The notes under the pieces were generated by a model. The model was not told where the DNA came from. It saw nothing but the letters and a program-made list of their open reading frames with translations, and did not search any database. DNA of 64,000 nt from NCBI GenBank assembly GCA_964016885.1, contig OZ024742.1, forward strand, positions 121,458,001-121,522,000. The letters are read 5' to 3'. How positions within the stretch are numbered: position 1 is the stretch's first letter; each line of letters opens with the position of its first letter. The DNA comes from Eledone cirrhosa. Lineage: Eukaryota. Made by a program: the position numbers and the translations under genes. Positions 11,115 through 64,000 of the stretch are shown here, piece after piece.

Positions 11115-11238
11115 TTCCTCTGATGATTGATTCGCATCTCCTGTACCTTTATCAAAATCGATAGTTGGTGATAGATGATCTATCGCTTAGATTGATTTTT
11201 CTTAAGGTTTTCGAATCATGAAATGGTACCATAAGGAA
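11115..11238 (+). ncRNA. Type I hammerhead ribozyme, ~93-nt helix/loop 2
   Basis: TTCCT-CTGATGA-TTGATTCG...CGAATCAT-GAAA-TGGTACCA-TA-AGGAA. Confidence 0.8.
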
Positions 11239-11557
11239 AAAAGTATTTTTCCAACTTGAAGTATATATTTTTCCGAAATATTATGTGCTTTAAGTATGTA
11301 CAAAATACCACGTGTCTCTCAAACGATATATGGCTCTTTCTCTCTCTCTCTCTCTTTCTCTCTCTCTCTCTCTCTCTCTCTCTCTCTCTCTCTCTCTCTC
11401 TCTCTCTCTCTCTCTCTCTCTCTCTATATATATATATATATATATATATATATATAGAGAGAGAGAGAGAAAGAGCCATATATCGTTTGAGAGACACGTG
11501 GTATTTTGCACATAATATTTCGGAAAAATATATACTTCAAGTTGGAAAAATACTTTT

Positions 11558-11681
11558 TTTCTTATGGTACCATTTCATGATTCGAAAACCTTAAGAAAAA
11601 TCAATCTAAGCGATAGATCATCTATCACCAACTATCGATTTTGATAAAGGTTCAGGAGATGCGAATCAATCATCAGAGGAA
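11558..11681 (-). ncRNA. Type I hammerhead ribozyme (inverted copy of 11115-11238)
   Basis: Reverse complement in the other arm, with one helix I substitution. Confidence 0.75.
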
Positions 11682-12795
11682 TTTCGTCTTTGAATAAAGT
11701 TCCAATAAAGTATAGAGTACATAATACTTTTATACCTGTCGGCATTCACGAGTTAGGCCAACGCAATAGAAAGAATGGTGCAAGTACATTTTAAATATGG
11801 CGGTAAATATAAACAGGATTGGAGTCTTATCCGCTAGAAAGAGTTGTGAAGTATGACTCACAGTGTGATCAGCTCAACAAATAAAAATTAAGTTATATTC
11901 TAATTTAAGGTGTCACAACATATAATATGTATGATGCTTGTGTTTCTCAGTAGAAAAGTTTAATTGACAGATACTTAGAATGCCCAAAATAGTTGGTGAT
12001 CGATTATCGATCACTTAGATCGATTTTTGTTATGGTTTTCGAATCATGAAATGGTACCATAAACAAAGAAGAATTTTTCCACCTTGAAGTATATATTTTT
12101 CCGAAATATTATGTGCTTTATATATGTACAAAATACCACGTGTCTCTCAAACGATATATGGCTCTTTCCCTTTGTCTCTCTCTCTCCCTCTACCTTCTTA
12201 TTTCGTTACTATCAACTTTTCCCCCTCTTTCTTCCTCTCCCTTTCTCCCTCTCACTTTCACTCACACTCTCTCTGCCAGTCACCTCATTGTTTCCCTCAC
12301 CTGACCATCTAGCAGTCCTTTTCTCACTTACACTCGCTAGAGTCGGGCGTATCTTTTCGTTCGCCCACACGCTCTCGAACTTAAGTTCTGTTACGCTGTG
12401 GTCTTGAATTTTCTTACCTTAAGTTGCTCGCACATTCCCTGGTTTGTTGGTTTTTTCGCTGTTTTCTCCTTTCTTCCCTTTTCCATTTTCCCTTCTACCC
12501 CCCCCCCCCCCTCCTTCGTTTTCCCAATAACTTACCCAGTTATTGAACGCTCTGGGGGTTGATATATTGTCTTTAAAGCGTTGAAATATCCGAGACCCCA
12601 AGTAGACAACTGATGAAGGAAAACTCCCCTCCCCCCCGTTCTTGCTTGCTTTCTTATTCTCATTCCATTTTTAAGCCCACACACACACACACACACCCAC
12701 CCACACACACACACACACACACACACACACACACACACACACACACACACACACACACACACACACACACACACATATATATATTCATTATAAGA

Positions 12796-12866
12796 ACAGA
12801 TTAAAGTTTAAGCAAAGAATCGCTGCTTTCACCCTTAACGGGATCTTCTTATCGAGCCCTCTTCTT
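12796..12866 (-). mobile_element. PLE terminal relic family C with 5'-clipped hammerhead
   Basis: Reverse complement ..GAAGA-TCCCGTTAAGGGT-GAAA-GCAGCGATTCTTTGC-TT-AAAC. Same family at 29650-29828. Confidence 0.65.
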
Positions 12867-61000: not shown

Positions 61001-61507
61001 CGCCATTGACATTACAATACAAGGGGAGGAAATACCACTGATGAAGTGAGGAAAGAACTTTGATAGACTATATATATATATATATATATATATATATATA
61101 TATATATATATATATATATATATATATATATATATATATATTTATATATATATTTATATATATATTCATATCTGTATTTTTAACCATTGGTCAATGAATG
61201 ATAAACATTGATTGCCAGATAAATTAACTATGGAGATATAAAAGATACAGAAGCGAAAACCAATCCAAACCAAACAGTGAGTGTGTTTTATTATTATTTC
61301 TGACAATATTATAACAATATCACCCTCCCCAAATGTAACAATATTTGTTTCAACACACGATTTCATATAAAAAACCTTGCAAAACACACACACACACACA
61401 CACACACACACACACACACACACACACACACACACACACACACACACACACACATATATATATATATGTGTGTGTGTGTGTAATGTAGGAAAGTAACACA
61501 CGAGTTG

Positions 61508-62040
61508 ATATATATAAAAACAAATAGTAGGGAAGAAAAAGATTTTTTCAGTAGAAAATGCCGAAGAGATTCTTTCAGTATAATATCAAAACATTTATTT
61601 ATTTATAAAGTCGATATTTCCGCATTTAATAACACCGGTTTCAGCATTATATGCTTTTTCAACTTCGGATATGCATAATGTAGTTATGTTGCATATTTAT
61701 ACGAACAATAAAAAAGGGAAGAAAAATTATTAGTTTTTACATACATATTTAGAGAAGACATACAAGGGTAAACACGGACAGAGATATGAACTCTCCTCTC
61801 TAAATATGTATGTAAAAACTAATAATTTTTCTTCCCCTTTTTATTATTCGTATAAATATGCAACATAACCATATTATGCATATCCGCTGTTGAAAAAGCA
61901 TATAATGGTGAAACCGGTATTATTAAATGCGGAAATACCCACTTTACAAATAAATAAATGTTTTGATATTATACTGAAAGAATCTCTTCAGCCTTTTCTG
62001 CTAAAAAAATCTTTTCCCTCTCTACTATTTGTTTATATAT
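61508..62040. mobile_element. Fold-back element family H (~250-bp arms)
   Basis: AAACAAATAGTAG...TACATATTTAGAGA matches TCTCTAAATATGTA...CTACTATTTGTTT. Confidence 0.88.
61883..61934 (+). ncRNA. Putative hammerhead, U3:A8 core (inverted copy 61619-61669)
   Basis: TTGAAAA-AGCAT ata ATG(G/C)T-GAAA-CCGG-TA. Helix I is only distal (TCCGC/GCGGA). Confidence 0.5.
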
Positions 62041-62069
62041 ATATATATATATATATATATATATAAACT

Positions 62070-64000
62070 AAAATAAATAAGTCAAATATTTAAAATTTGG
62101 CTTCGTTTATTACTGCTATATATATTTCGGTAACACCCATCTTTGGCTGTGGCCTCTTCAGGCAGTCCGAATTAGTGTGGTAGAGACGAGTACACATGTT
62201 GTTGAGGTGTTTAACTTTGTCAATACTCTGATATGCCCAGTTCCTGGTTGGGTTGTTATTTCACTGAGGAACTGGAATCATATGAATTTAAACAAACGAA
62301 TTTCAGCGTCAAAGGACATCCTCTCCTCCCATTGGTCAGTTGTGAGAACATTCCTCAGTCAAAAGTCTATAGAAATTCATTCTGAGGCGAGGCAATCTGT
62401 AGTGGTTGTTTTTGTTATTGTTAAGTACATCTGACCTCTACTCTTATGCTGATAGTGGTGTTGGTGTTGGAGTCAGCTTAATTCCAGCTGCTGCTTATTT
62501 TAGATGGATCTGTGTGTGTGTGTTGGCATCTATCCTGCCACCATTTCTCGTGGTGGTAGTGGTGGTGGTGGTGGCGGCGGCTGTGTGTGTGTGTGGGGGG
62601 GGGGATGTGTGTGCCAAGCATATGAAGAAATAAAAGGCAATAAAATGAAGAAAATAGAAAATGGAAATAAGATAATATAAGCAAATAATTAAACAAAAAG
62701 ATGATAAAATGGTAGAAGGAATAAGATGATAAAAGAATAAAATAAGGTAATCAAATAAAATGTGTGTGTTATAACCAATCTCAAAGTTAGAAAGATTTGT
62801 AAGATCCACTCCTCCCATTGGTCAGTTGGGAGAGCATTCCTCAGTCAAAAGTCTATAGAAATTCTTTCTGGGGTGAGGCGATCTGTAGTGTTTGTTTTTG
62901 CTATTGTTAAGTACATCTGACCTCTACCCTTATTTTGGTAGTGATGTTGGTGCTGCGGTTAGCCTAGGTCTTGCTGCTGTTGATTTTAGAAGGATCTGTG
63001 TGTGTGTGTGTTAGCATCCATCCTGCCACCATTTCTCGTGGTGGTGGTTGTGGTGGTGGTGGTTGTGGTGGTGGTGGTGAGGGGGGGGGATTGTGCTATG
63101 CATATGAAGAAATAAAAGGCAATAAAATGAAGAAAATAGAAAATAAATGAAAAATAAAAAAATGAAGATTCAAATAACATGTGTGTGTGTTATAACCAAT
63201 CTCAAAGTTAGAAAGATGTTGGCCAAATTAGAAAGACTGTGTCAGAATCAATCTCTAGGCTATCATGGTGTCTGCTCAGCCTAGATGGGTCCCTATGGCT
63301 TGAGGGGAGTTCCCAACCTATGGTGTTGTTACTGTCCATATAGCTTGAGGGAGGTCCGGCCCAGAGGTGTCTACATGTTCTGGAGAAGTCCCTATAGCTT
63401 GAGGGGAGTTCACATCTCAGTATGTTGTTTCTGTCCATATAGCTTGAGGAAGGTCCCGGCCCTGAGGTGTCTACATGTCCCGAAGAAGTCGGTTCTGAGG
63501 TTTATCAGGCGGCTTCCACCTCTTAGTATCTCCAGGGTTTCGCTCAGACATAGTTTGCATCGGATGGTACTTTCCTGATTATGGACCAGGCCAGAGAGTA
63601 CGGGGTCCTGTCCATCTTAAGCTTCCTGATCAGGTCGGAAAGAGCCGTACTTTTCCTTTTGACCTCCTTATTGAAGGAATGGCGATGGTTATACCAACGG
63701 TCTTTAAAGCTTGTTGATGTGGCTCCTATGTAAAGGTGTTCGGAGTTAGGGTTTTTTTTACTCTACATTCGTATATTAGGTTCTTCCTAAGGCATTCATT
63801 ACTAAGGGGGCATAATTCGGGGTTTTTGCAGTTGCAGAGGGTTGTCGACCTCTGCGTGCCTAGTGTGGGGTTCCCGTTACGTGTTACGTGGTGGTCTTCC
63901 CTAACCCTACTCCTGTTGATGCTAGCTATGTGTTGGGCTAGATTTCTCGTGGTGGAATACGAGAGCTTCACAGTCTGTCTGTTGAAGATCTTGTGGTATC
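62070..64000 (-). mobile_element. 3' part of a PLE (linker + GIY-YIG at 63500-64000) with duplicated 3' UTR (62325-62800/62810-63217) and short tandem repeats at 63290-63480
   Basis: KIFNRQTVKLSYS, CNCKNPELCPLSNECLRKNLIYEC, (frameshift) YIGATSTSFKDRWYNHRHSF...TALS. Confidence 0.88.
62112..62166 (-). ncRNA. Type I hammerhead ribozyme at the PLE 3' end
   Basis: Reverse complement ACTGC-CTGAAGA-GGCCAC...GTTACC-GAAA-TATATA-TA-GCAGT. Confidence 0.85.

Follow-up and report, generated by a model that had tools for sequence, protein, structure and literature searches.

Palindromic helix III in type I hammerhead motifs of Eledone cirrhosa: a probable dimer interface that appears to drift by descent

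The 64,000 nucleotides of Eledone cirrhosa contig OZ024742.1 analyzed here (assembly GCA_964016885.1, positions 121,458,001 to 121,522,000; in the following termed the window) contain a series of hammerhead motifs whose helix III, located between GAAA and UH, is a palindrome that varies from family to family. This raises the question whether the symmetry serves to pair two RNA copies and whether the sequence of the palindrome constitutes a code by which a family recognizes itself. With a probability of about 0.8, we regard the motifs as type I hammerheads that belong to Penelope-like elements (PLEs) and to retrozymes and in which helix III pairs two copies and the palindrome drifts by descent rather than being a selected code.

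Hammerhead motifs in the window and in a genome sample

A hammerhead descriptor that leaves helix III free was applied to the window and to 140 stretches of 10 kb from the genome (1.4 Mb). The genome sample yielded 114 matches vs. 5.6 in shuffled sequence (10 shuffles), with helix III being a perfect palindrome in 51 cases (0.3 expected from 10 shuffles), a palindrome with one mismatch in 36, odd-symmetric in nine, a hairpin in two and of other structure in 16. One tandem family supplies 16 of the 51 perfect palindromes. The seven matches in the window (five perfect palindromes, one odd-symmetric, one hairpin) compare with averages over 30 shuffles of about 0.5 matches and 0.03 palindromes. 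False descriptor matches caused by a 27-nt satellite in locus L218 were removed. Extrapolation from 98 motifs in 1.4 Mb leads to approximately 2 × 10^5 motifs genome-wide. From the symmetric matches, 63 lineages were curated by hand, many of them single-copy and two of which (PLE family D and the motif at 37813) may be one; 35 single-locus non-symmetric clusters and three loci overlapping the window are excluded from this count.

The motifs feature the core CUGANGA or its U3:A8 variant together with GAAA and UH, possess helices I and II, end in helix I and exhibit the palindromic 15.2-16.2 and loop 3 of the minimal PLE hammerhead. By sequence, they belong to the minimal type I hammerheads already described from PLEs and retrozymes. 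Rfam returned one weak sub-threshold HH9 match (51890-51961) among the 150 of 236 window matches listed, the top matches being miRNA models that fall on microsatellites or on inverted repeats. Repeats within the window were mapped by masked self-BLAST, as a plain repeat search was dominated by AT repeats.

All ten palindromes named in the original prediction are real at the family level and its coordinates correspond to motif edges; of the 13 copies listed there, eight are intact and five damaged or weak. Intact motifs on the plus strand carry TGGTACCA (11224-11231; motif 11115-11238, with a 93-nt helix II region), CAAGGCCTTG (14139-14148; motif 14109-14154, with a U3:A8 core), TGCGCA (17386-17391; motif 17331-17401), CAATTG (32245-32250; motif 32149-32255, with a 3-bp helix I and an 82-nt helix II region), CCCATGGG (45146-45153; motif 45081-45160) and CTAG (51933-51936; motif 51901-51945). 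On the minus strand, these are joined by TATATA (62124-62119; motif 62166-62112) and by a minimal CG (ACGU) hammerhead (47498-47463), for which a monomeric helix III is impossible. The TGGTACCA hammerhead (42 genome matches among 40 scored candidates) is accompanied by an inverted copy (core at 11676, minus strand) and a 3' half near 12048 (plus strand), the CAAGGCCTTG and TGCGCA hammerheads by inverted second copies (13849-13894 and 17137-17207, respectively, both minus strand) and the CCCATGGG hammerhead by a 3' half near 44450 (plus strand) and a 5' half near 44153 (minus strand). The CAAGGCCTTG family is young, with many copies being 98-100% identical.

The damaged or weak copies comprise CG (ACGU) at 20080-20115 (plus strand; helix I of just 2 bp), a second CAATTG copy at 32772-32882 (plus strand; core mutated to CTGATGT) and two U3:A8 hammerheads with CCGG, both on the plus strand. 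The first of these (37813-37859; CCGG at 37850-37853) is weak with a 2-bp helix I, has an inverted copy (core at 37639, minus strand) and matches the PLE family D motif at 75-76%. The second (61883-61925; CCGG at 61914-61917) is decayed with a 1-bp helix I and an inverted copy (core at 61662, minus strand). For CATATG, reported as arms at 32330, the palindrome is correct for the family (GAAA-CATATG-TA in seven of 13 aligned copies), but the arms are a misread decayed copy (32349-32445, minus strand; core CTGCGGA at 32439, UH lost) that has a decayed inverted counterpart (32457-32562, plus strand). CCGG, considered to be shared by two families, actually occurs at four window sites belonging to different lineages (25941-, 37818+, 59966+, 61890+).

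Several motifs had been missed previously, namely a CGATCG hammerhead (41110-41245, minus strand, at 41237; 101-nt helix II region), a U3:A8 hammerhead with CCGG and GCAA replacing GAAA (25908-25944, minus strand), a U3:A8 hammerhead-like motif with CCGG and a weak helix II (59963-60001, plus strand) and two looped type I hammerheads on the plus strand. One of the latter (80-159, at 86) has a long hairpin helix III of 15 nt and is monomer-capable, the other (13441-13522, at 13449) has a non-palindromic looped helix III of monomer type (5 bp, 7-nt loop), represents a counter-example to the palindromes and is single-copy in the genome sample. Candidates at 19894 (CTTCGAAG), 46130 (GAGCTC), 14301 and 13980 (TAGCTA), 37472 (ATATAT), 45251 (TTAA), 59352 (ACGT), 23624 (TCTGCAGA) and 34725 (CGATCG) were discounted because core or helix I is absent.

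Association with Penelope-like elements and a retrozyme-like repeat

The window harbors a 5'-truncated Neptune-like PLE open reading frame of family B (27141-28280, minus strand) that encodes the C-terminal part of the reverse transcriptase (RT), a CX4CxxC linker as well as a C-terminal GIY-YIG endonuclease and is followed downstream by the hammerhead with GCAA. Motif comparison of the window ORF with PMC8557442 indicates that families A to D fit Neptune-like PLEs (C-terminal GIY-YIG, CX2-5CxxC linker, CCHH motif). The distance from PLE endonuclease domains to the hammerheads downstream is 0.4-1.4 kb, and the terminal-repeat position downstream of an RT/GIY-YIG ORF applies to families A to E, the window PLE and the CAATTG family. 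Downstream of the endonuclease, CCGG was found in 17 of 22 loci of family A, 10 of 13 of family C and both loci of family D, GTAC in all 11 loci of family E and GCAA-CCGG in seven of 12 loci of family B. In L218, a 938-aa ORF is flanked by two hammerhead copies in direct orientation, spaced by about 5 kb. The CAATTG family is tied to a PLE (locus L271) that is Hydra-like by motif comparison (RWK motif, CxCX5C linker, C-terminal GIY-YIG) and whose ORF is spread over several frames. In the endonuclease search from which these counts stem, 150 of 10,596 candidates were scored, with a bias towards one clade, and 70 were examined. No endonuclease was found upstream in the examined loci of the TGGTACCA, CAAGGCCTTG, TGCGCA, CG, CCCATGGG and TATATA families, and a search for hammerheads in PLE groups F and H gave no clear assignable one. 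Pfam analysis of 14 window ORFs revealed pieces of LINE-type RT/endonuclease unrelated to the hammerhead motifs.

The CTAG hammerhead resides in a retrozyme-like 467-nt tandem repeat (51632-52238, plus strand; 1.3 units, 140-nt terminal redundancy), i.e., a short non-coding unit with a single type I hammerhead as in non-LTR retrozymes. The unit is also tandem in locus L091, and contigs of four sequencing runs contain the head-to-tail joint at 467 nt. None of the 26 variable places in these four runs, too few to weigh, falls inside the 45-nt hammerhead. Another family, CGCG, occurs in a 310-nt array. Short tandem units with a type I hammerhead likewise characterize non-LTR retrozymes and newt/axolotl satellites (PMC7229834; Li et al., 2026, preprint), although the CTAG unit exceeds the 170-400 nt of the retrozyme units in PMC7229834.

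The motifs match the minimal hammerheads of metazoan PLEs (min-HHR; Cervera and de la Pena, 2014; PMC4209133) in type I topology, occurrence in the terminal repeats of PLEs, the palindromes at 15.2-16.2 and in loop 3, a large number of families in one genome, the U3:A8 core variant, mostly single truncated copies, inverted pairs 100-700 bp apart and palindromes that differ between families (Fig. S3 therein). Loop-less palindromes of up to 8-10 nt, helix II regions of about 100 nt and a family with GCAA instead of GAAA are distinctive here, and clade mapping, G-U paths and heterodimer analysis do not appear in the consulted part of that work.

Pairing of two copies versus monomeric folding

Minimal type I hammerheads of PLEs and retrozymes have been reported to cleave as dimers, and, in line with earlier descriptions, two copies of one RNA likely join through the palindromic helix III to give a double hammerhead. 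The location in PLEs, the palindromic symmetry and the literature support the original prediction that PLE-type minimal hammerheads would be built to act as dimers. Geometry implies that in the dimer, A15.1 of one strand would pair with U16.1 of the other, such that helix I would be intermolecular too and each core would cut the partner strand. Formed between the tandem terminal repeats of one transcript, the dimer would cut out a unit-length RNA. For just 26 of 154 intact motifs, another member of the family lies on the same strand inside the same 10-kb stretch, so that most genomic copies could dimerize only in trans. The arrangement resembles the ASBVd-type double hammerhead, in which two cores are fused through a helix III too short in the monomer (PMC6466107); unlike ASBVd, a viroid whose two polarities both carry hammerheads, the motifs described here belong to genomic retroelement repeats and to one strand. 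The axolotl hammerhead HHR_Amex1, with a 1-bp helix III and a palindromic tetraloop, needs dimers (PMC7229834; Li et al., 2026, preprint).

An alternative, which we consider unlikely, holds that the longer palindromes (6-10 nt) mainly form monomer hairpins and that only the CG, CCGG and CTAG types need dimers. A monomer helix III of 2-4 bp closed by a tetraloop is indeed feasible (predicted hairpin energies of -1.8 to +4.7 kcal/mol for 6-10 nt), monomeric constructs of invertebrate retrozyme hammerheads with a 2-bp helix III undergo cleavage according to the literature, coral and mussel retrozyme monomers self-cleave, and families with a truly looped helix III are present (86+, 13449+ and a 14-nt type in nine loci). 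On the other hand, the bases that a monomer hairpin would loop out are themselves self-complementary, which a monomer does not need and which favors dimers: the central four bases pair with themselves in 30 of 35 matches with a helix III of 6-10 nt (19 by Watson-Crick pairs only) and in 14 of 18 distinct sequences (p = 2 × 10^-9 against 14%). In addition, for the 6-10-nt palindromes of the window, the predicted standard-state energy of the duplex is 11-20 kcal/mol lower than that of two hairpins. The claim that cleavage needs two copies appears safe only for palindromes of 2-4 nt, while those of 6-10 nt may also close a monomer hairpin.

Sharing, drift and predicted cross-pairing of palindromes

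Among 37 lineages of the sample, 24 distinct perfect palindromes were found, and 38 lineage pairs share a palindrome vs. 18.1 ± 5.9 under the null (P = 0.006 for at least as many); when eight related lineages are collapsed, 11 shared pairs stand against 7.4 ± 3.3. CAATTG is common to six lineages. Mapping of palindrome identity onto PLE families, put forward as a check of the code, showed that families A to D, a clade (96/100) with 50-70% protein identity, all keep CCGG. Furthermore, one family contains two palindromes, CAAGGCCTTG (48 copies) and CAGAGCTCTG (three copies, context 83-84% identical), that differ in two compensated pairs. CATATG/CGATTG constitutes a change within a lineage, TATATA, TATGTA, TACGTA and TGCGCA all occur on one helix I, and related flanks carry CCATGG/CCCATGGG and CTACGTAG/CTGTACAG. 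Between related lineages, the differences consist of G-U steps or of symmetric changes in length; the excess of G-U over A-C variants (16 vs. 6, p = 0.052; cluster majorities 8 vs. 2, p = 0.11) is no more than suggestive.

We propose that selection would maintain self-complementarity alone. A single substitution creating a G-U step would alter both arms of the homodimer and a second one would restore Watson-Crick pairing, whereby palindromes would wander in sequence and be lengthened or shortened symmetrically by pairs. Because related families share palindromes, drift by descent is the likely account of their sequence, not a family-specific code.

That the palindrome is nevertheless a selected self-recognition code, with co-resident families diverging in helix III to avoid heterodimers, is improbable. 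Its variety would agree with this idea, as would the young CAAGGCCTTG subfamily, in which two compensated pairs have changed relative to CAGAGCTCTG relatives on the same helix I. Moreover, nearest-neighbor energies (seven of the 63 lineages omitted from the matrix) predict a heterodimer penalty of 3 kcal/mol or more in 1521 of 1540 lineage pairs, such that most unrelated families are predicted to fail to cross-pair. To this extent, the proposed insulation of co-resident families is supported at the level of predicted energies, but helix I is predicted to discriminate as much as helix III (predicted medians of 12.1 and 10.7 kcal/mol, respectively) and helix III alone would not decide the partner: two CTAG families are predicted to be 13.7 kcal/mol apart wholly due to helix I. 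Failure to cross-pair is likely a by-product of divergence in both helices, and orthogonality alone does not indicate selection since random palindrome sets would be mostly orthogonal. Sharing above chance speaks against a code, as does the constancy of CCGG across families A to D, where predicted penalties amount to 0-8 kcal/mol. G-U intermediates (TATGTA/TACGTA, CAATTG/CGATTG) are predicted to cross-pair freely with penalties near 0, and cis tandem copies would probably outcompete trans partners anyway. A literature search revealed no proposal of a family code; work by Lunse et al. from 2016, reportedly also on minimal hammerheads of metazoan PLEs, may already cover heterodimers or palindrome diversity.

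It is very improbable that the symmetry is a DNA-level feature (a protein-binding site or hairpin by-product) with the hammerheads as passengers lacking a needed RNA function: Naiad PLEs spread without canonical hammerheads (PMC8557442), hammerhead mutants left PLE insertion in vitro unimpaired, the anole PLE hammerhead needing protein and being dispensable there, and the G-U test fails significance, but the palindrome always lies between GAAA and UH within a full hammerhead fold, U3:A8 core covariation is retained, and family-level G-U forms recur (TATGTA, CGGTCG and CGATTG each occupy 3-7 loci), whereas A-C forms never constitute a majority across multiple loci.

The hammerhead class is already known, and pairing of two copies through a palindrome that drifts by descent is an ordinary claim. 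The genome adds a large natural series that allows a direct test of the dimer model and illustrates the changes a self-complementary helix can undergo. A more far-reaching and rather improbable reading is that the dimer interface, i.e., helix III plus both helix I arms, acts as a self/non-self lock among dozens of co-resident retroelements that would restrict cleavage to the own clade, with elements of matching lock cutting or processing one another in trans and new subfamilies escaping via G-U intermediates to a new palindrome, for which CAGAGCTCTG to CAAGGCCTTG may be an example. If the interface were such a lock in vivo, it would represent a ribozyme-level self-recognition system among transposons and offer a ready-made set of orthogonal dimeric ribozymes.

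Hammerhead motifs in the window and across the genome

Every site named in the original prediction was rebuilt, its numbers being edges of motifs, and the palindromes reported there were borne out. Eight of the 13 named copies are intact type I hammerheads, with TGGTACCA (11115), CAAGGCCTTG (14109), TGCGCA, CG (47463), CAATTG (32146), CCCATGGG (45082), CTAG and TATATA as helix III. The copies at 20080, 32772, 37813, 61883 and 32330 are damaged or weak; at 32330 core and UH are both mutated, while CATATG is right for its family (GAAA-CATATG-TA in 7 of 13 aligned copies). Two CCGG sites had been counted, which was too few, as 25941 (minus) and 59966 (plus) also carry CCGG. 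Further additions are a CGATCG hammerhead at 41237 (minus) and looped helix III motifs at 86 and 13449 (both plus). A helix-III-free descriptor returned seven motifs in the window, five with a perfect palindrome, vs. about 0.5 per shuffle; no same-family, same-strand pair of intact copies occurs in the window. Some helix II regions (window 11120, 32152, 41237; many loci) span 50-100 nt, often as branched hairpins, and are much longer than those of minimal hammerheads in the published descriptions compared. A repeat in which CTGATGA is immediately followed by GAAA-TCTGCAGA-TA (23624 minus; sampled loci L141, L051, L210) is hammerhead-like in its core and palindrome but lacks helix II and shows no clear helix I.

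Microsatellites and short inverted repeats abound in the window, which has a G+C content of 34% and belongs to contig C3 (genome size 3.0 Gb). It holds decayed LINE-type elements (endonuclease, RT and zf-RVT by Pfam; 2944-6337 and 48423-49707, both minus), a 1.8-kb array of a 9-bp unit between long TA microsatellites (54282-56087) and, in at least ten copies, a common SINE-like repeat roughly 200 nt long (1821-2033, 6698-7053, 15630-16010, 20532-20723, 31153-31279, 39307-39745, 41238-41382, 59720-59874).

Applied to 140 stretches of 10 kb at even spacing, which together cover 1.4 of 2,996 Mb and come mostly from contigs 1-5, the same descriptor gave 114 matches vs. 5.6 in shuffles: 51 perfect palindromes, 16 of them from one tandem family, 36 with one mismatch, 9 of odd symmetry, 2 hairpins and 16 of other kinds. 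Extrapolation from the 98 symmetric matches yields about 2x10^5 motifs genome-wide. Of the random sample's 154 intact motifs, 77 stand alone, 51 are accompanied solely by an inverted partner, and for 26 a same-strand partner lies within 10 kb. Odd-length symmetric families (CCGCCGG, L147:9361 +; CCACTGG, L193:7740 +; CCTTTGG, L268:1261 +; CCTCTGG, L172:3270 +) could adopt a monomer fold with a 3-bp triloop. A common family with helix III GAAC or GGAC (L071:4839 + and 16 other loci), found downstream of distant PLE endonuclease-like matches, has a symmetric outer pair and a tandem purine-purine centre, possibly forming sheared pairs in a dimer.

Carrier elements

A GIY-YIG search of the genome, with 150 of 10,596 candidates scored and 70 loci examined, placed hammerheads 0.4-1.4 kb downstream of Penelope-like element (PLE) endonucleases on the sense strand, namely CCGG in families A (17/22 loci), C (10/13) and D (2/2), GTAC in family E (11/11) and GCAA-CCGG in family B (7/12). 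In the family B core, GCAA replaces GAAA in combination with the U3:A8 variant (window 25941 minus; L207, L225, L119, L121, L134, L137, L139). At L218, two direct hammerhead copies enclose a 938-aa ORF. The truncated family B element of the window (28280-27141, minus), with its CX4CxxC linker and own hammerhead at 25941, matches the Neptune-type anatomy described in PMC8557442, and the ORF adjoining the CAATTG family (32146) bears RWK and CxCX5C, given there as marks of the Hydra clade. The CTAG motif lies within a unit of 467 nt that is terminally redundant over 140 nt, occurs in tandem elsewhere in the genome and resembles a non-LTR retrozyme (for retrozymes see PMC7229834); a tandem array of 310-nt units with identical CGCG hammerheads (L100:281-3381, minus) is likewise retrozyme-like. 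Derivation of retrozymes from PLE repeats is reported in a 2026 preprint (10.64898/2026.07.22.740005).

Because no upstream ORF was found in the loci examined for six of the originally named families, their probable PLE origin is deduced from anatomy. Weak PLE-like RT/endonuclease remnants occur at 33404-33667 (minus) and 60755-60937 (plus), the latter about 1 kb upstream of, and putatively associated with, the motif at 61890. An intact 1096-aa PLE ORF of family F (L226; G000:C1:83811992-83819243) is followed by a hammerhead-like motif with a poor helix I.

Dimer or monomer

Pairing energies were added up from nearest-neighbour terms alone, junctions and proteins being left out. The anole PLE hammerhead is reported to need protein, and in vitro insertion to proceed without the hammerhead (PMC11167929). 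Helix III of the CG palindrome cannot close in a monomer, 4-nt palindromes would form one pair plus loop (+5.6 to +6.0 kcal/mol) and those of 6-10 nt hairpins of 2-4 bp (-1.8 to +4.7 kcal/mol). The central four bases, looped out in the monomer, are self-complementary in 30/35 matches and 14/18 distinct sequences (p=2e-9), which favours the intermolecular helix as the probable target of selection. One-mismatch variants (16 G-U, 6 A-C, 15 other; G-U vs. A-C p=0.052) are suggestive of selection at the RNA level. Minimal hammerheads in PLE repeats are described by Cervera and de la Pena (2014; PMC4209133), who find a genome to hold many families of them, note the U3:A8 variant, the inverted pairs and the palindromic nature of 15.2-16.2 and loop 3, and saw a low level of cleavage in dimers and trimers, not in monomers; reviews restate the minimal PLE findings, citing Lunse et al. 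2016 (PMC6765202; PMC6466107). Self-cleavage of coral and mussel retrozyme monomers (PMC7229834), on the other hand, counts against obligate dimers. Central-base symmetry favours dimer action through helix III, as originally proposed; a need for two copies can be taken as secure only for palindromes of 2-4 nt, those of 6-10 nt being able to close as monomer hairpins as well.

Palindromes and families

The original prediction further proposed the palindrome as a possible self-recognition code that varies by family. In type I double hammerhead geometry helix I, too, is swapped between strands, which corrects its view of helix III. For the 1540 pairs among 56 lineages, predicted heterodimer penalties have a median of 22.9 kcal/mol (helix III 10.7, helix I 12.1); only 19 pairs, nearly all of them relatives, stay below 3 kcal/mol, and 37/3080 ordered pairs permit one-sided pairing. 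Insulation of unrelated families is hence the prediction (1521/1540 pairs at 3 kcal/mol or more), and this part of the original idea is sound; random palindromes, however, would be insulated as well, and relatives are not. The 37 perfect-palindrome lineages, curated by the author and biased to symmetric motifs (D and 37813 are perhaps one family), hold 24 distinct palindromes, with CCGG common to seven and CAATTG to six. There is no sign among them that shared palindromes are avoided, identical pairs numbering 38 vs. 18.1±5.9 under a composition-matched null, or 11 vs. 7.4±3.3 after eight related lineages were collapsed. In a PLE family tree built from 19 rows, rooted at the midpoint and lacking named references, CCGG is kept throughout the single clade of families A-D (96/100), at 50-70% identity, and family E (41-46% identity) carries GTAC. 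Within lineages palindromes change while symmetry is kept: CAAGGCCTTG (48 copies) and CAGAGCTCTG (three copies) differ in two compensated pairs, one helix I is common to TATATA (9), TATGTA (9), TACGTA (1) and TGCGCA (15), CATATG and CGATTG mark two subfamilies, and the flanks of CCATGG and CCCATGGG are 66% identical. The one-palindrome-per-family code thus failed on sharing, on clade-wide CCGG and on within-lineage change, and is improbable. That palindromes differ between families is already in PMC4209133 (Fig. S3); no proposal of a family-specific code was found in the literature searched.

The hammerheads are real, and their class is already known, the members here being new; we read them, with a probability of roughly 0.8, as PLE and retrozyme hammerheads of the dimer type whose palindromes drift.
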